Source: Blastocatellia bacterium (GTDB lineage: Bacteria; Acidobacteriota; Blastocatellia; UBA7656). Taken from it: a stretch of DNA of 64,000 nucleotides. The stretch is taken from contig DATFGX010000016.1 of assembly GCA_035248905.1 (NCBI GenBank), forward strand, positions 91,022-155,021, written 5' to 3'. Both the position numbers and the translations under genes were made by a program. Shown here piece after piece: positions 52,540-64,000 of the stretch. Within the stretch, counting starts at the first letter, position 1; each line of letters begins with the position of its first letter. The notes beneath the pieces were generated by a model. The model had not been told where the DNA came from, searched no databases, and worked only from the letters and a program-made list of their open reading frames with translations.

Positions 52540-53841
52540 ATGCACATCGCAGTCATTGGTACAGGTTACGTCGGGCTGGTGAGCGGCGCCTGCTTTGCCG
52601 AGTTCGGCAACAACGTCATCTGCGTGGACAGCGACCGCACCAAGATCGATAAGATCAAGGACGGCCAGATGCCCATCTACGAGCCGGGGCTTGAAGCGCT
52701 GGTCGCCAAGAACGTCCGCGAAGGCCGCCTGGAATTCACCACCGACATCAACAGCGCGATTGAACAGTCGCTGGTCGTGATGCTCGCCGTCGGCACGCCG
52801 TCGACGACCGACGGCTCGGCGGACATGAGCCAGGTCGAAGCCGTCGCGCTCGAAATCGCCCGCGCCCTGAACAGCTACAAAGTCATCGTCACCAAGAGCA
52901 CGGTGCCGGTCGGCGCCGCCGGCTACATCAAACGCATCATCGATGAGAACAAGCGTTCGAGCTGCCGCTACTCGGTCGCCTCGAACCCGGAGTTTCTGCG
53001 CGAAGGCGCGGCCATCAACGACTTCCTGCGCCCAGACCGCGTCGTCATCGGCTGCAACGACGAAGAGGCCATCGAGATTCTCAAAGACCTCTACCGCCCG
53101 CTCTACCTCATCGAGACGCCGTTTGTCGTCACCAACCCCGAATCGGCGGAGATGATCAAGTACGCCTCGAACGCCTTTCTGGCGACGAAAATTTCTTTCA
53201 TCAACGAGATCGCCAACCTCTGCGACCGCCTCGGCGCAGACGTGCGCGATGTCGTCAAGGGCATGGGCATGGACAAGCGCATCGGCTCGAAATTCCTGCA
53301 CCCCGGCCCGGGCTTCGGCGGCAGTTGTTTCCCGAAAGACGTCAAGGCGCTGTCGGCCATCGCGCGCAACGTCGGTTATGAGATGAAGCTCACAGAAGCG
53401 GTGCTGGCGGTCAACGAGCGGCAGATGGCTTCGGTGATCGAGCGCGTGCGGCGGGCGGTGCCCGACCTCGAAGGCAAGACGGTGGCGCTGCTCGGATTGG
53501 CGTTCAAGCCGGACACGGATGACATGCGCGAAGCGCCGGCATTAAAGATCATCAGCGATCTGCAAGCGGCGGGCGCAAGCGTGCGGGCTTACGACCCGGC
53601 GGCGATGGCAGCGGCGCAGCAAGTGGTCACGGGTGTCGCCTTTTGCGAAGACGAATACGAAGCGGCGCGCGGCAGTGACGCGCTCGTGGTCGTGACGGAA
53701 TGGAATCAGTTTCGCGGCCTCGATTTTGACCGCTTGAAGTCGGTGATGCGCGCCCTGAACCTCATCGACACGCGCAACATCTACGAGCCGAAAGACGTGC
53801 GCGAGGCCGGCTTTACCTACGTCTCGATGGGCCGGGTGTAA
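52540..53841 (+). CDS. ugd: UDP-glucose 6-dehydrogenase
   Basis: N-terminal Rossmann GTGYVGL; catalytic Cys region (GFGGSCFPKD); UDPG/GDP-mannose dehydrogenase family length. Confidence 0.88.
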   Translation: MHIAVIGTGYVGLVSGACFAEFGNNVICVDSDRTKIDKIKDGQMPIYEPGLEALVAKNVREGRLEFTTDINSAIEQSLVVMLAVGTPSTTDGSADMSQVEAVALEIARALNSYKVIVTKSTVPVGAAGYIKRIIDENKRSSCRYSVASNPEFLREGAAINDFLRPDRVVIGCNDEEAIEILKDLYRPLYLIETPFVVTNPESAEMIKYASNAFLATKISFINEIANLCDRLGADVRDVVKGMGMDKRIGSKFLHPGPGFGGSCFPKDVKALSAIARNVGYEMKLTEAVLAVNERQMASVIERVRRAVPDLEGKTVALLGLAFKPDTDDMREAPALKIISDLQAAGASVRAYDPAAMAAAQQVVTGVAFCEDEYEAARGSDALVVVTEWNQFRGLDFDRLKSVMRALNLIDTRNIYEPKDVREAGFTYVSMGRV

Positions 53842-58437: not shown

Positions 58438-60099
58438 ATGAAAAGATTCTGGTTCGCGCTCGTCATCCTCTCCGCCCTCTGCTGCGCCGCATTCGTCGGC
58501 GTCGCGCCGGCGCAGCAAAGCAATGGCTCACAGCCGGCGACTGCCGCAGTCACAAAGCCCCTTGAAGAGATGGTGGCGATGCGTGACGGCGTGCACCTGT
58601 CAACCAGCATCTACCTGCCCGAAGGCAAGGGACCATTCCCTGTGGTGCTGGTCCGTACGCCTTACGGCAAAGGGACGCAGGCCGTCGGCTACGCGGCGTG
58701 GACGAAGCGCGGCTTCGCGCTGGTCACGCAGGACGTGCGCGGCAAGGGCAAGAGCGAAGGCCCGTACCGCCCGTTCGTGGACGACGCCAACGATGGCCTT
58801 GATTCGGTCGAGTGGATTGCCAAGCAGCCGTGGTCGAACGGCAAAGTCGGCATGTTCGGCGCTTCAGCGATGGGCATCACGGCGAATCTGGCGGCGATGA
58901 TGAACCCGCCGCATCTGGTCGCCACCTTTGTGATGGTGGCGCGGTCGAGCATCTACACGCAGTCGGCTTTCATGGGCGGCGTCTTTCGCAAAGAGCTGAA
59001 CGAAATCTGGCTCAAGCGCCAGGGCGCGATGGACGTGCTTGAAGAGACCTTCAAGCACAACGTCTACGATCATTTTTATGACCTCGCCGAAATGCCGCTC
59101 TACTGGGACAAGATCAAGGTGCCGGTCTACAACTATGGCGGCTGGTACGACATCTTCGCGCAGGGCAACATCGACAACTTCGTCGGCCAGCAAGCGCAGG
59201 GCGGGGGGCTGGCGGCGGGCAATCAGAAGCTGATGATGGGGCCGTGGGGCCACGGGCAGATCGAAGAGATCAAGTACCCGGCGAACTCTGTAGTGAGTGC
59301 TACAGATGAAGCCTTGCGCTGGTTCGACTACTGGCTGCAAGGCAAAGACAACGGCATCATGGACGAGCCGCCGGTGAAGTATTACGTGATGGGTGACGTC
59401 ACGGACGCGAAAGCGCCGGGCAACGAATGGCGCACCGCCACCAGTTGGCCCGTGCCCGCAAAGACGACTTCGTACTTTCTCACGGCGGGCGGCGGCCTGA
59501 GCGACAAGCTGCCGGGAACGGGCGAGAGCCTAGACACCTACAAGTACGACCCCAAGAATCCCGTGCCGACCATCGGCGGCGCGAACCTCAACATCAAGAA
59601 AGGCCCGATGGATCAGCGCGCCGTAGGCACTCGGCAAGACCTGCTGAAATTCATGACGCCGGCGCTCGACACGCCCGTTGAAGTGACGGGCCGCGTTAAA
59701 GTCGAGCTGTGGGCCGAATCCGATGCCGCGGACACGGACTTCATGGCGAAGCTGGTGGATGTTTATCCGGATGGCACCGAGCGGCTGGTGTTAGATTCGG
59801 CGGTGCGGGCGCGCTTCCGCGAAGGCTTCGACCACGAAGTGTTCATGAAGAAGGGCGAAGTCTATCGCTTGACGATTGACCTCTGGTCAACCAGCATCAT
59901 CTTCAACAAAGGCCACCGCATCGCGATTCACGTCAGCAGCTCGAACGACCCGCGCTTCGACCCGAACCCGAATACCGGCAAGCCCTTGCGCGCCGACAAT
60001 GAGACGCGCGTGGCGACCAACACGATCCACCACGACCGCGCGCACCCGTCGCGCGCCTTGCTACCGATTGTCCCGGTTTACAACAGCAAGCGGCCATAA
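58438..60099 (+). CDS. secreted CocE/NonD-family hydrolase (peptidase S15, Xaa-Pro dipeptidyl-peptidase-like)
   Basis: Signal peptide; conserved S15 N-terminal region (PVVLVRTPYGKG) and nucleophile context (GMFGASAMG); C-terminal beta-sandwich domain. Confidence 0.8.
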   Translation: MKRFWFALVILSALCCAAFVGVAPAQQSNGSQPATAAVTKPLEEMVAMRDGVHLSTSIYLPEGKGPFPVVLVRTPYGKGTQAVGYAAWTKRGFALVTQDVRGKGKSEGPYRPFVDDANDGLDSVEWIAKQPWSNGKVGMFGASAMGITANLAAMMNPPHLVATFVMVARSSIYTQSAFMGGVFRKELNEIWLKRQGAMDVLEETFKHNVYDHFYDLAEMPLYWDKIKVPVYNYGGWYDIFAQGNIDNFVGQQAQGGGLAAGNQKLMMGPWGHGQIEEIKYPANSVVSATDEALRWFDYWLQGKDNGIMDEPPVKYYVMGDVTDAKAPGNEWRTATSWPVPAKTTSYFLTAGGGLSDKLPGTGESLDTYKYDPKNPVPTIGGANLNIKKGPMDQRAVGTRQDLLKFMTPALDTPVEVTGRVKVELWAESDAADTDFMAKLVDVYPDGTERLVLDSAVRARFREGFDHEVFMKKGEVYRLTIDLWSTSIIFNKGHRIAIHVSSSNDPRFDPNPNTGKPLRADNETRVATNTIHHDRAHPSRALLPIVPVYNSKRP

Positions 60100-60276
60100 C
60101 CGTTTTGGGTTTGCAGTCGAGCTGATAGTCGAGTATGAATTACATCTGGCATGATCGTAATTCGACTCATCACGGCGTTCGTCCGGTGTGAGCTTCAGGT
60201 ATCATAAACGGCCCGCTCGGGGTTCATTCCGATTTTATTTCGTCCTGATCGCGCTGATGGAAGGCGGAGTAACCCG

Positions 60277-61677
60277 ATGGCGCAGATTTACCTCTCTTCG
60301 ACCTTTAGTGATCTAAAAGAATATCGAGACATCGTGTATCGCACGCTCAGGCAGATGCGCCATGATGTCGTCGCGATGGAAGACTACGTCGCCACCGACC
60401 AGCGGCCGCTGGCAAAGTGTCTGGCCGATGTCAGCCACTGCGACATCTATCTCTTAATTCTCGCCTGGCGCTATGGCTACGTCCCCAACCAGGATAACCC
60501 TGACAACCAATCGATCACCGAGATGGAGTTTCGCCATGCAGTACAGAAAGGCAAACCCTGTTTGGTCTTTCTGCTGGCTGAAGATTACCCATGGTCGCCT
60601 GTGAAGATGGAGAAGGGCGAAGGGGCCGAGAAGCTCCAGGCGCTGCGCGGCGAATTATGCGAGCGCTACACGGTCAGCTTCTTCCGCAGCGAGGATGAGC
60701 TGGGCAGGCTGGTCGGCGCCGCCGTCTCCCAATGCAACCCGGCAGCGGCGGCGCACGCCACGCCGGCGGGCGGCGCGCGCGTCGAGGTGAGCGCCGGGCG
60801 CGAGCCGCACCTCGGGCCGCTCGTCTCGAAGATGTGTGACCGCAGTCGTCAGACGACCGAGTTCATGGATTTTTTCCTGGGCAACCTGAAGGCGCACCGC
60901 GGCGTGCCGCAATTCTTCTTCGTTCACGGCGAGGAGCGCGAAGGCCACGACAGCTTTGTCGAGCGCCTGACTTACACACAGATCAAAGGCTATGCGGAGA
61001 AGCGCTGGGGCGAGCAGAAAGGCGTCGTGGCCTTCAAGAAGGTGGGCTGGAGTTATGACGGCAGCCCGGCAGAGCTGCGGCAGGAATTGAAACGCCTGTT
61101 GTTCGCCGAGTTTGACCCGGTGTATATGAGCGACGACCTGTCGGCCACCGCCCTGAGCCAGTTGGCAGCCAGGGCGCGGACGCCGCTGGTGGTGATTCAA
61201 CACCGGCTTTACGCGGCGCGCTGGAACCGCGCCGCCAGAGAGTTGCTCGAATGGTACTTGACCTATTGGACCGACATGAAAAGCAGCCCGGCGAGGCCGC
61301 AATTCCTGATCTTCCTGAGCGTCATCTATCCGCAGTCGCAGCCGCAGAACTGGTGGCGGAGATGGAAGACCGCCGGCGCGCCGGATAAGGAACGCATCGT
61401 CGCCGAGCTTCAGCAGATCAGCGGCTCAGGCAACGTCGGCTGCCCCTGCCTGCTGCTCAGAGAGCTGTTGCCGCTGCGGCCAGAGGAAGTGAAAGACTGG
61501 TTCAGCGCGCATAGCATTGATTCCGAGAAAATGCAGTACGAATGGCTCGCAAGGATCTTCAAAACCGGCGACGGGCGAGCCGCCGATTTCAAGAGCATGG
61601 CCGACGTCGAGGATGAACTACAAAGCCTCGTTGATGCCTTGAGGCAGACGACCATCAGCGCGCGGGGGAGGTTATGA
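60277..61677 (+). CDS. DUF4062 (TIR-like/STIR superfamily) domain protein with about 300-aa uncharacterised C-terminal region
   Basis: N-terminal 160 aa fit the DUF4062 pattern (IYLSSTFSDLKEYRD...MEDY...HCDIYLLILAWRYGYVP...SITEMEFRHAVQKGKPCLVFLL...KLQALRGEL); 4-nt ATGA overlap with the next gene. Confidence 0.55.
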   Translation: MAQIYLSSTFSDLKEYRDIVYRTLRQMRHDVVAMEDYVATDQRPLAKCLADVSHCDIYLLILAWRYGYVPNQDNPDNQSITEMEFRHAVQKGKPCLVFLLAEDYPWSPVKMEKGEGAEKLQALRGELCERYTVSFFRSEDELGRLVGAAVSQCNPAAAAHATPAGGARVEVSAGREPHLGPLVSKMCDRSRQTTEFMDFFLGNLKAHRGVPQFFFVHGEEREGHDSFVERLTYTQIKGYAEKRWGEQKGVVAFKKVGWSYDGSPAELRQELKRLLFAEFDPVYMSDDLSATALSQLAARARTPLVVIQHRLYAARWNRAARELLEWYLTYWTDMKSSPARPQFLIFLSVIYPQSQPQNWWRRWKTAGAPDKERIVAELQQISGSGNVGCPCLLLRELLPLRPEEVKDWFSAHSIDSEKMQYEWLARIFKTGDGRAADFKSMADVEDELQSLVDALRQTTISARGRL

Positions 61678-62669
61678 GCGAGGAGAAAGCCTTTCAATTG
61701 TATTCCGGCGAGGGCGTTGCCCTGGCCGAGCGAGGTCTGCGGCTGCCGCCCTTTGAACGGCTGGTGGGGCTGGACGACCCGGCGTATTACATCGCCGAAA
61801 AGGGACTGCGCGACGCCGTCAATGTGGCGCTGGCGCTGGGGCAGCCCTTGCTGGTCACAGGCGAGCCGGGCACAGGCAAGACGCAGCTCGCCTACAGCCT
61901 GGCTTTCGAACTCGGCCTGGCCGCGCCCCTCGTCAGCCAGACCAAGACGACTTCGACGTCGAAGGATCTGTTTTATCGTTATGACGCGTTGGGCCATTTT
62001 CATGACGCGCAGTTTCGCAAAGAAGCGACGCGCGTCGAAGACTACGTCGCTTATGAAGCGCTAGGGCTTGCCATCCTCTTATCTATGAGCCCGGCAGACG
62101 CCAACCGCCACCTGCCAGAGCGTCTGCGCGACCGCGGCCCGGCGCGCTCGGTCGTGCTCATCGATGAGATCGACAAGGCGCCGCGCGATCTGCCGAATGA
62201 CGTGTTGAACGAGATCGAAACGATGTCGTTCACGGTCAGAGAAACCGGCCAGACCTTTGTCGCGGATCAGCGCTACCGGCCCATTCTGGTGTTGACCAGC
62301 AACTCTGAGAAGAACCTGCCGGACGCCTTCTTACGCCGCTGCGTCTTCTACCACATCGCTTTCCCGGATCAGGAGCGATTGAAAAGGATCGTTCAAAGTC
62401 GCCTGCGTTTGCAGCCTGACTTCACCCCGCAGATGCTGGAGCACGCCATCCGTCACTTTGAAGAGATTCGCGAGATGGCGCTGAAAAAGAAGCCGGCGAC
62501 GGCAGAGTTTCTCGCCTGGGTGCAGATTCTGGAGAAGATGCGCCTGGATGTTGCCAACCTCAAGCCGGGCGAAGCCGAAGCCCTGGCCTTCAGCTATTCG
62601 ATCCTGGCCAAGAGCAAGGAGGATCGCGATATTTTATACCGCACCTTTGTCGAGCCGCAGAGCGCATAA
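61674..62669 (+). CDS. MoxR/AAA_5-like AAA+ ATPase
   Basis: Walker A GEPGTGKT, Walker B VVLIDEIDKA, sensor-2-like FLRRC; about 330 aa single AAA+ module; stop TAA directly abuts the next ATG. Confidence 0.75.
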   Translation: MSEEKAFQLYSGEGVALAERGLRLPPFERLVGLDDPAYYIAEKGLRDAVNVALALGQPLLVTGEPGTGKTQLAYSLAFELGLAAPLVSQTKTTSTSKDLFYRYDALGHFHDAQFRKEATRVEDYVAYEALGLAILLSMSPADANRHLPERLRDRGPARSVVLIDEIDKAPRDLPNDVLNEIETMSFTVRETGQTFVADQRYRPILVLTSNSEKNLPDAFLRRCVFYHIAFPDQERLKRIVQSRLRLQPDFTPQMLEHAIRHFEEIREMALKKKPATAEFLAWVQILEKMRLDVANLKPGEAEALAFSYSILAKSKEDRDILYRTFVEPQSA

Positions 62670-63990
62670 ATGGACGCTGTACCCGAACAGGCTGGCCCGC
62701 TGGCTTTCGGCGATTTCCTCGAATACCTGCGCCGACAAGGGTTCACCTTTGGCATTGATGACTACCTGCGCTTGCAGGAGCTGCTCAACAAGATGGGCGG
62801 CGATTGCGCCCCGGCAGATTTGAAGACCCGCCTGTGTCCGCTGCTGGCAACCAACCCCTTCGAGCAGGAACAGTTTTACGAAGCGTTCGATCAATATTTC
62901 GATCTCTTCCAAACCGCGCCGGCGGCTGCAAGCCGCCGCGCGCCTGATGTCCTGCCGGTCGCGCGCGACATCCCCCAACCTGCCCGCAAGCGAAAACTGC
63001 TTTATGTCTTGGCCGGTCTCCTGGCCGTGGCGCTTGTCATTGCAGGTGTGCTTTTCGTGAAGTCGCGGCGCACGGCTCCCAACGCGCAGGCGGATCTCAA
63101 CAATCTCTCTCCGCCGATGAATGCGCGCACAGACCCGAACGTCGCTGACTTCTCGCGGCGGGCAACGGCAAGCCTCCAGACGCAGAGTGAGGTTCAAGGA
63201 TATTTTTATCAGCGCTACGGCAGGGCGATCCATCTCAGCATGGTCGCTTTGCCGCTCCTCGGCTTTCTGATTTACGAATGGCATCGCTTCCGCCGTCGCA
63301 ACCTGTTGCTGGAAAAACAGCGCCTCAAAAAGCCGCCCTTCGTCTGGCCACTCAAGGTAGAAGCGCCGGCGGCCAGTCTCTACGATGCGCAGCAACTCCA
63401 CGCCGTCGCGCGGCGGATGCGGCAGCGACAACTGGGCGAGCTTGATCGGCTCGACGTTGCGGCGACAGTGACCGCGACAATTGCCGCCCGCGGTTATCCG
63501 AGCTTTCGCTATGCACGCGACAGCCGGACGCCTGAGTACCTGGTGCTCATCGACCGCTGTTCGTTCCGCGATCATCAAGCCCGACTCTTTGATGAGCTGG
63601 CGAAAGCCTTAGAGCGTGAGGGATTGTTTATCAGGCGCTACTTTTACGACACCGACCCGCGAGTCTGCTGGACCGAGACGGGGGCGAGCGTCGAGCTTGT
63701 CGAGCTACAGAATCGCTACGGCGAGCATCGGCTATTGATCTTCGGCGAGGGCGAGCGAATGATCGATCCGGTCACCGGCAAGCTGGAATCCTGGGCAACG
63801 ATCTTCGAAGAATGGCCTGAGCGGGCGCTGTTCACTCCGGAAGTGCCGTCGCAGTGGGGGCTGCGGGAGATCATCTTGGCCGAACCATTCGTTCTGCTGC
63901 CGGCCACCCTCGAAGGACTCCTGGCCGCCGTTGATTACTTCGAGCTGCCGGCGGCGACCGACCTGCGTGCCTGGCAAAGGGGCGCGGCTG
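62670..63990 (+). CDS. large hypothetical membrane protein (partial; continues beyond the window end)
   Basis: ATG directly after the TAA of the ATPase gene; no in-frame stop through the window end (more than 440 codons); predicted TM helices (LLYVLAGLLAVALVIAGVLFV and SMVALPLLGFLIYEW); not in the ORF track, probably because no stop codon falls within the window. Confidence 0.6.
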
Positions 63991-64000
63991 CTGCGCCGCC

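Follow-up and report, generated by a model that had tools for sequence, protein, structure and literature searches.

Organization of the operon

A three-gene operon lies at the end of the window, that is, the whole 64,000-nucleotide stretch of Blastocatellia DNA analysed here (contig DATFGX010000016.1, positions 91,022 to 155,021). The genes encode, in this order, a protein joining a DUF4062 domain to an inactive STAND domain (iSTAND), a MoxR-clade AAA+ ATPase, and a membrane-anchored, von Willebrand factor A (vWA)-like protein, which ends beyond the window in a predicted decahaem cytochrome c tail. Judged by its domains, the trio matches what Kaur et al. 2020 (PMC7159879) described as MoxR-vWA subsystem 2, the iSTAND ternary system. 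The operon and the region upstream of it contain:

60217-60232, + strand: terminator-like hairpin, a 6-bp stem then TTTTATTT (consensus match only)
60277-61677, + strand: gene 1, 466 amino acids (aa), iSTAND component made of a DUF4062/NIR head, an Ala-rich linker and an inactive STAND domain
61674-62669, + strand: gene 2, 331 aa, MoxR-clade AAA+ ATPase
62670-64000, cut by the window end, + strand: gene 3, membrane-anchored vWA-like component with a predicted decahaem tail

An earlier note on this DNA, made from its letters alone, had described three coupled open reading frames (ORFs). The ORF list and the raw sequence bear this out, the stop of gene 1 and the start of gene 2 overlapping in an ATGA, and the ATG of gene 3 directly following the TAA of gene 2 with 0 bp spacing (TAAATG). 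Gene 3 was completed from the 120.6-kb ENA contig ERZ27257121 k141_1179966, reached by exact-sequence look-up with gene 2; at full length it measures 3033 nt and 1010 aa, and ends at the window-equivalent position 65702 (contig L001 10997-14029). Its product is, in NCBI, a hypothetical protein of a Blastocatellia metagenome-assembled genome, and the operon lies in the chromosome of this uncultured Blastocatellia (Acidobacteriota) bacterium. Window and ENA contig differ at 4 of 12,327 bases, none of them inside the trio. The differing bases are found at window positions 52815, 52863, 55598 and 55600, all upstream of the three genes, and may be strain or assembly variants.

The hairpin at 60217-60232 resides between a peptidase S15 gene, which ends at 60099, and gene 1. 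Terminator-like sites number 2, against 0.5 expected in shuffles. With its T-run, the hairpin is consistent with a transcription unit that begins with gene 1; no match to a sigma-70-like promoter was found upstream of that gene. The lower GC content that the earlier note had ascribed to this intergenic region is real (0.51 vs. about 0.61 in the flanks), and ordinary for intergenic DNA. The imperfect inverted repeat reported along with it was not recovered, the repeat finder returning 0 pairs in 60080-60290 (seed 6, length at least 8).

The iSTAND protein

Three features were located in gene 1:

60283-60540 (aa 3-88), + strand: DUF4062 (NIR) domain, Pfam E=6e-26, 90.9 bits vs. a cut-off of 24.7
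60526-60528, + strand: codon of the putative catalytic Glu E84, in the motif SITEMEF
60832-61317 (aa 186-347), + strand: inactive STAND (iSTAND) NTPase-like domain, PF19995, E=8.6e-22

The DUF4062 domain thus begins the protein, as had been read from the translation. The lack of any NTPase motif, also pointed out earlier, is accounted for by the C-terminal half of the protein being an inactive STAND domain: the P-loop position reads HGEEREGHDS instead of GxxGxGK[ST], the P-loop lysine being replaced, and the Walker A lysine is missing in 40 collected orthologues too. The head and the iSTAND domain are joined by an Ala/Gly-rich linker (window 60700-60800, aa ~150-175, GC content 0.72), which differs in length and sequence among orthologues.

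DUF4062, alias NIR, is a TIR-like NADase domain of phage defence with an essential Glu (three 2026 preprints), the activity and its dependence on the catalytic Glu having been demonstrated in Swarozyc, Avs2, Vulcan, Vesta and TEP1 (2026 preprints). The gene 1 domain matches the KpSwz structure PDB 10wc (phmmer, E=4e-8), and in the alignment its TEMEF faces a TEKAF. The deposited KpSwz constructs are 15-C E97A. The Ala in TEKAF is most simply the mutated E97, with numbering inferred from the 15-C construct, which would make E84 of gene 1 the catalytic residue. Of the two Glu of TExE, the second alone is invariant, in 16/16 aligned iSTAND-linked DUF4062 heads. Gene 1 therefore appears to keep the putative catalytic Glu of the DUF4062/NIR NADases, and its head is a predicted TIR-like NADase, the activity having been demonstrated in other members of the family only.

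The MoxR ATPase

Gene 2 is a MoxR-clade AAA+ ATPase whose ATP-binding and hydrolysis motifs are, from the sequence, intact. The two motifs on which the earlier note had based the same assignment are in place (Walker A GEPGTGKT at aa 63-70; VVLIDEIDKA, with Walker B VVLIDE, at aa 160-169) and are joined by a sensor-1 LVLTSN. The protein matches AAA_5 (E=4e-10), its best PDB sequence match is the AAA ring of Midasin (E=1.2e-7), and its homologues in cultured bacteria are named MoxR family ATPase by RefSeq. The 57-aa N-terminus is free of Trp, and hence of the VMAP-type motifs WxhapG and PsWRxa.

A sub-threshold match links gene 2 (61674-62669) to the NCBIfam entry 'MadB family AAA-type ATPase' (1e-24, 87 bits, cut-off 475), and the N-terminal domain of gene 3 (62715-62978) has a weak one, also sub-threshold, to 'MadC family VWA domain-containing protein' (E=0.0047). 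Both point to a related, named MoxR-vWA pair; a literature search on MadB/MadC turned up solely an unrelated lantibiotic dehydratase.

The membrane-anchored vWA-like protein

The layout of gene 3 was derived from an AlphaFold2 model (42-sequence alignment), from hydropathy, and from counts of Lys and Arg residues (K/R). All features are on the + strand:

62706-62903 (aa 13-78), + strand: four-helix N-terminal domain, AlphaFold2 helices 13-22, 29-42, 48-59 and 63-78, pLDDT ~80-90
62997-63281, + strand: transmembrane helix TM1 (aa 110-130), a ~55-aa periplasmic loop and TM2 (aa 187-204), from hydropathy, K/R counts and AlphaFold2 helices 109-132 and 179-219
63432-63944 (aa ~255-425), + strand: vWA-like alpha/beta domain, AlphaFold2 pLDDT >90, MIDAS not conserved
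beyond the window (L001 12340-12860; aa ~450-620), + strand: conserved helical domain, the most conserved stretch of the family
beyond the window (aa 634-655), + strand: TM3, from hydropathy
beyond the window (aa 687-984), + strand: ten CxxCH sites, predicted decahaem cytochrome c tail

The two or more transmembrane helices that the earlier note had seen in the truncated reading frame running off the window correspond to TM1 and TM2. A strongly basic stretch follows TM2, and by the positive-inside rule the N-terminal and vWA-like domains are predicted to lie in the cytoplasm. A four-helix domain preceding CoxE-type vWA domains has been reported for this class of proteins (PMC7159879); for the gene 3 domain, common descent with the CoxE-type ones has weak support, from the MadC match alone.

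Sequence searches are silent on the alpha/beta domain: no Pfam match was obtained with the window part of gene 3 or with aa 200-660, VWA_CoxE matches occur in 3/29 family members with E at least 0.011 throughout, and the family alignment, used as a profile against the PDB, retrieved FGE domains of some tails only. The vWA assignment consequently rests on fold comparison. Foldseek ranks first a 238-aa chain from the NorQ-NorD complex, taken as NorD, and the best fold matches are the MIDAS domain of Midasin and the VWA domain of NorD; the same Z is reached, over shorter alignments, by CheY-like receivers and TIR domains, so that the comparison cannot fully separate vWA from flavodoxin-like folds. 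The MIDAS motif DxSxS, for which the earlier note had advised a search, is not conserved: DRCSF stands in its place, D295 being variable, D301 and H302 conserved. Taken together, the model suggests a vWA-like domain in which MIDAS has been eroded. The note had seen no VWA partner of the ATPase; gene 3 itself, in the light of the model, would be a divergent vWA-type partner devoid of MIDAS.

At the DxSxS position (window 63540-63575, aa 291-302) the family keeps Y290, L293, D301 and H302, in the pattern 'EYLVLIDRxSxRDHQ', a set that may form another ligand-binding or metal-binding site in place of MIDAS. The conserved helical domain (FQWLCACAVYPELHWDLTLYLG..., with invariant W479, T482, W509, G513 and R520) has no Pfam or PDB match over aa ~450-620.

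The predicted decahaem tail

The most unusual feature of the operon lies beyond the window end and was thus out of view of the earlier note. Ten CxxCH motifs take up all 20 cysteines of the gene 3 tail, in which 23 His are available; Pfam Cytochrome_C7 (45 bits) and Cytochrom_c3_2 (36 bits) match it, both above their gathering scores. The tail is accordingly predicted to be a ten-haem c-type cytochrome. Attachment of c-type haem takes place in the periplasm. A periplasmic location of the haem domain is predicted mainly because three membrane passes separate it from the cytoplasmic N-terminus; the K/R residues flanking TM3 (3 before vs. 2 after) agree weakly with export.

Multihaem tails are a minority variant, four or more CxxCH motifs being found in 14/230 members of the gene 3 family. 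Members of one subclade (P0001, P0003-P0011) share a heptahaem core, with all haem sites and several additional His conserved at 55-65% identity, a conservation that argues for a functional haem protein. The core is followed by either TPR repeats or a trihaem extension.

The closest relatives of the tail outside the family, queried with L001:12974-14026, are proteins of ~430-610 aa from Pyrinomonadaceae and other Acidobacteria (P0122-P0129), in which a cytoplasmic FHA domain, one transmembrane helix and a periplasmic heptahaem module follow one another. They share with gene 3 the membrane-anchored heptahaem module (PH, CHxEHxG, PHGG..GYPVVNGxW, FHxxH; 28-59% identity), but carry a cytoplasmic FHA domain where gene 3 has its vWA-type module. 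The heptahaem module resembles a transmembrane sensor cassette fit for reuse, and the contexts in which the tail is met would speak for a sensory rather than a respiratory role.

In another locus (L083 2517-7939) the iSTAND protein accompanying a decahaem-tailed orthologue has a TIR_2 head in place of DUF4062, so that TIR and DUF4062 heads seem able to replace each other while core and tail stay the same.

Relatives and synteny

Many relatives match the N-terminal 660 aa of gene 3 (25-71% identity), and their C-termini are wholly different. A profile of the alpha/beta domain retrieved 3,035 representatives (E<=1e-10) from a library clustered at 50% identity, and the core made of four-helix N-terminal domain, vWA-like domain and helical domain is common to about 3,000 relatives. 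The tails include FGE-sulfatase, TonB_C, OmpA, PASTA, WD40/TPR, PKD, Big_2, SH3, CarboxypepD_reg and multihaem modules.

Synteny was monitored in 80 genome loci by tblastn with genes 1 and 2, the counts referring to the 67 loci with at least 2.6 kb upstream. A MoxR gene is directly upstream, on the same strand, in 60/67 loci. An iSTAND-like gene is detectable in 50/67, and the loci devoid of one are mostly from divergent Bacteroidota. All the upstream genes extracted (40/40) match PF19995. The heads of the iSTAND proteins vary, as follows (n=40 loci):

DUF4062: 10
TIR: 9
protein kinase: 7
CHAT: 5
trypsin: 3
cyclase: 2
caspase: 1
EAD9: 1

The order iSTAND, MoxR, gene 3 family is kept across at least six phyla, which sustains the earlier view of the trio as one unit. 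Carriers include Acidobacteriota, Gemmatimonadota, Desulfobacterales, Bacteroidota (Saprospiraceae, Flexithrix) and Moduliflexus, and plasmid-borne homologues were found in Azospirillum, Nostoc, Cylindrospermopsis, Acaryochloris and Haliscomenobacter. The iSTAND sequences diverge fast (17-70% identity, mean column identity 18%). Across relatives the core is fixed, and iSTAND heads and gene 3 tails are swapped like cassettes.

Several paralogous systems may coexist in one genome, as L034, L044 and L064 in one Desulfobacterales, or the pairs L008 and L015, L024 and L046. These two or three copies per genome match the report by Kaur et al. (PMC7159879) that paralogous systems within one organism carry different tails.

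The core is also present in cultured bacteria, among them Azospirillum lipoferum 4B (AZOLI_RS19135-19150), Haliscomenobacter hydrossis DSM 1100, Flexithrix dorotheae DSM 6795 and Cylindrospermopsis curvispora. Plasmid AZO_p2 of A. lipoferum 4B (L085 2019-9188) carries, in this order, trypco2, a serine protease, MoxR and a 1411-aa protein annotated as 'O-antigen polymerase'. On the Cylindrospermopsis plasmid (L084 2850-7430) the genes encode, in order, a hypothetical protein, MoxR and a protein whose tail is of the tetrapyrrole-binding GUN4 type, and a group II intron and a transposase adjoin them.

Relation to known systems

The iSTAND ternary system was predicted computationally as an association of MoxR, vWA and inactive STAND proteins (Kaur, Burroughs, Iyer, Aravind, eLife 2020, PMC7159879). 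In the description of the class, MoxR lacks VMAP extensions, and the vWA component has a four-helix CoxE-like N-terminal domain, N-terminal transmembrane segments in 28% of cases, and a variable C-terminus, in which FGS is the commonest module and peptidoglycan-binding domains are preceded by a transmembrane segment; the heads of the iSTAND proteins are TIR, DRHyd or peptidase domains (PMC7159879). The operon resembles the class in its three genes, in the TIR-related head at the N-terminus of the inactive STAND protein, in a MoxR free of VMAP-type extensions, and in a gene 3 with four-helix N-terminal domain, N-terminal transmembrane helices and a hypervariable C-terminus past a further transmembrane helix. 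FGE/FGS is the commonest tail among the relatives of gene 3 as well. The operon departs from the class as described in that the vWA-like domain is without MIDAS residues. The DRHyd head of Kaur et al. may correspond to DUF4062.

The earlier note could match the gene combination to no named system. The iSTAND ternary system (PMC7159879) is that match, and its Pfam family recognizes gene 1 with E of about 9e-22. The multihaem tail is a variant of this predicted class. It was not found described in the main text of Kaur et al. or in one supplementary file, where cytochrome or haem, DUF4062 and Acidobacteria are likewise not mentioned (PMC7159879).

Swarozyc (KpSwz), PsAvs2, Vulcan, Vesta and Evangelion share with gene 1 the N-terminal DUF4062, the TExE Glu, and a head set on an oligomerising or sensing scaffold. 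Those DUF4062/NIR proteins form single-gene or two-gene systems with active STAND, TPR, portal-binding domain or phosphatase, whereas gene 1 has a dead STAND as its scaffold, which would rely on a separate MoxR and on a vWA-like membrane protein. The words MoxR and iSTAND are absent from the texts of the Swarozyc and NIR preprints, and the NIR survey includes no such architecture.

The Esr pathway of oral Actinobacteria, a MoxR-vWA relay of surface threats of the beta-propeller type (bioRxiv 10.64898/2026.09.08.750141), was the only experimental work on MoxR-vWA threat relays found. It belongs to Actinomycetota and differs from the operon in being of beta-propeller and not iSTAND type (bioRxiv 10.64898/2026.09.08.750141), and in its output, a kinase/phosphatase-FHA relay plus Esx secretion vs. 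the predicted NADase here.

With CoxD/CoxE, NorQ/NorD and Midasin the operon has in common an ATPase gene, followed here by that of a vWA-like protein, gene 2 being nearest to the Midasin AAA ring. Unlike these, it features a third gene with a predicted NADase head and a hypervariable tail, and lacks both a MIDAS motif and an adjacent metalloenzyme target.

Proposed function and alternatives

The locus is probably an iSTAND-type MoxR-vWA ternary operon of the class of Kaur et al. 2020 mounting a threat response, in which the tail of gene 3 provides the input and the NADase the output. The extracytoplasmic tail would perceive a disturbance of periplasmic redox state or electron flow, or bind a component of the envelope, and the signal would then cross the membrane to the vWA-like domain. 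The MoxR hexamer might spend ATP in remodelling the vWA-iSTAND complex, thus setting a threshold, past which the iSTAND-tethered NADase heads would be released or clustered and would hydrolyse NAD+. Depletion of NAD+ would lead to growth arrest or aborted infection. The role of the tail as a sensor is favoured by the alternative tails, all of which are envelope-binding or periplasm-binding modules, and by the occurrence of the same heptahaem module behind a transmembrane helix in proteins with cytoplasmic FHA domains. The beta-propeller MoxR-vWA pathway relays a threat at the surface (bioRxiv 10.64898/2026.09.08.750141), and this speaks for a sensory tail as well. The grammar of conflict systems that the earlier note had read into the trio is in line with the literature, and in orthologous loci effector-type heads (TIR, CHAT/caspase, trypsin, kinase, cyclase) take the place of DUF4062. 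The interpretation given in the note is in this sense partly supported: the grammar was right, the system had already been named, and a putative vWA partner is present.

Several results weigh against this assignment. The locus is flanked by housekeeping genes (peptidase S15, amidohydrolase, cell-wall amidase) and is not in a defence island; in a related metagenome-assembled genome (MAG) the system occupies the same site, and signs of mobility or of an island, as are common around defence genes, are missing. PADLOC-DB v2, a check that the earlier note had proposed, has no model for the system: no system model was matched, genes 1 and 3 have no meaningful match, and gene 2 has P-loop-level matches to TRIP13 and IetA only. 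Since the iSTAND class is itself a computational prediction, every step of the mechanism is inferred, and both haem attachment and the NADase activity of gene 1 are predicted. The vWA tails are moreover called 'effectors' by Kaur et al., and the iSTAND protein the sensor, which is the opposite polarity (PMC7159879).

A system of such opposite polarity, unlikely as it seems, would have the iSTAND protein sense an invader in the cytoplasm and MoxR-vWA set the threshold, the tail of gene 3 being the effector: an unleashed decahaem would short-circuit periplasmic electron transfer or collapse respiration, alongside the depletion of NAD+ by DUF4062. Sensing is given to iSTAND and the effector role to the vWA tails both by Kaur et al. 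(PMC7159879) and by a 2025/2026 BREX paper, the iSTAND proteins diverge fast, and the haem sites are fully intact, so that the tail is chemically competent. But most other tails (TonB_C, OmpA, PASTA, PKD, TPR/WD40, FGE lectin-like) are binding modules without killing activity, and the iSTAND protein is where the evident killer enzymes (NADase, TIR, caspase/CHAT, trypsin) are found; the same haem module is paired elsewhere with FHA signalling domains, and the sole MoxR-vWA pathway studied experimentally senses outside the cell. A non-immune role is rather improbable. The trio would in that case be a MoxR-vWA chaperone maturing or inserting its own membrane cytochrome, or an envelope or redox stress sensor tuning NAD+ or dormancy, as the housekeeping neighbourhood kept in the related MAG, the failure to match PADLOC, and the fact that Blastocatellia are not known as multicellular would all allow. 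The characterised MoxR-vWA pairs (CoxD/CoxE, NorQ/NorD) are indeed cofactor-insertion chaperones; of their two marks, a functional MIDAS and a gene position beside the metalloenzyme target, the trio has neither, for the VWA-typical motif is absent and no target metalloenzyme genes adjoin it. The same core, furthermore, carries cofactor-free tails, the third gene of the system bears NADase, TIR, caspase or trypsin heads, and several paralogous systems with different tails are found per genome, three of them in one Desulfobacterales. Effector heads, cofactor-free tails and the missing MIDAS make this role less likely than a threat response. That gene 3 is an unrelated neighbour, and the trio a chance juxtaposition, is scarcely credible: apart from the want of a Pfam match inside the window nothing favours it, and gene 3 starts 0 bp after gene 2, in an order found in 60/67 loci from at least 6 phyla, in addition to annotated plasmids of cultured bacteria.

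Within the threat-response reading, it is a tentative suggestion that the decahaem tail is a true redox input, the operon being a conflict or cell-suicide pathway that would monitor periplasmic electron transfer and fire a TIR-like NADase via MoxR-vWA. If so, respiratory collapse on infection, redox-active toxins, and contact with predators or epibionts are candidate triggers, and FHA signalling proteins of Acidobacteria would make use of the same membrane-anchored heptahaem sensor cassette. Judging from the periplasmic multihaem module, some iSTAND-type systems may read redox chemistry outside the cytoplasm, a type of input not described so far for bacterial immune-like systems. The iSTAND-type MoxR-vWA systems, predicted in 2020, make up a large, phylum-spanning family; by tying the class to the DUF4062/NIR NADases, the locus gives it a concrete output that can be assayed, a putative E84-dependent loss of NAD+.

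Genomic neighbourhood

An origin of this locus from a mobile element or an island was considered and rejected, as tRNA genes are absent, the neighbours are housekeeping genes, and the site is the same in the related MAG. On the downstream side, a convergent gene encoding Amidase_2 and PG_binding_1 domains (L001 14052-14852, minus strand) ends 23 bp past gene 3; it is not kept beside the system in the related MAG (L082). There the operon (L082 3623-9336; ENA ERZ27257211 k141_2056038) occupies the same site, with Amidohydro_2 and Peptidase_S15 genes upstream, and encodes a DUF4062-iSTAND protein and a tail of heptahaem plus TPR, not decahaem, type. An ankyrin-repeat gene is inserted upstream of it, and a Peptidase_S8 gene is found downstream.

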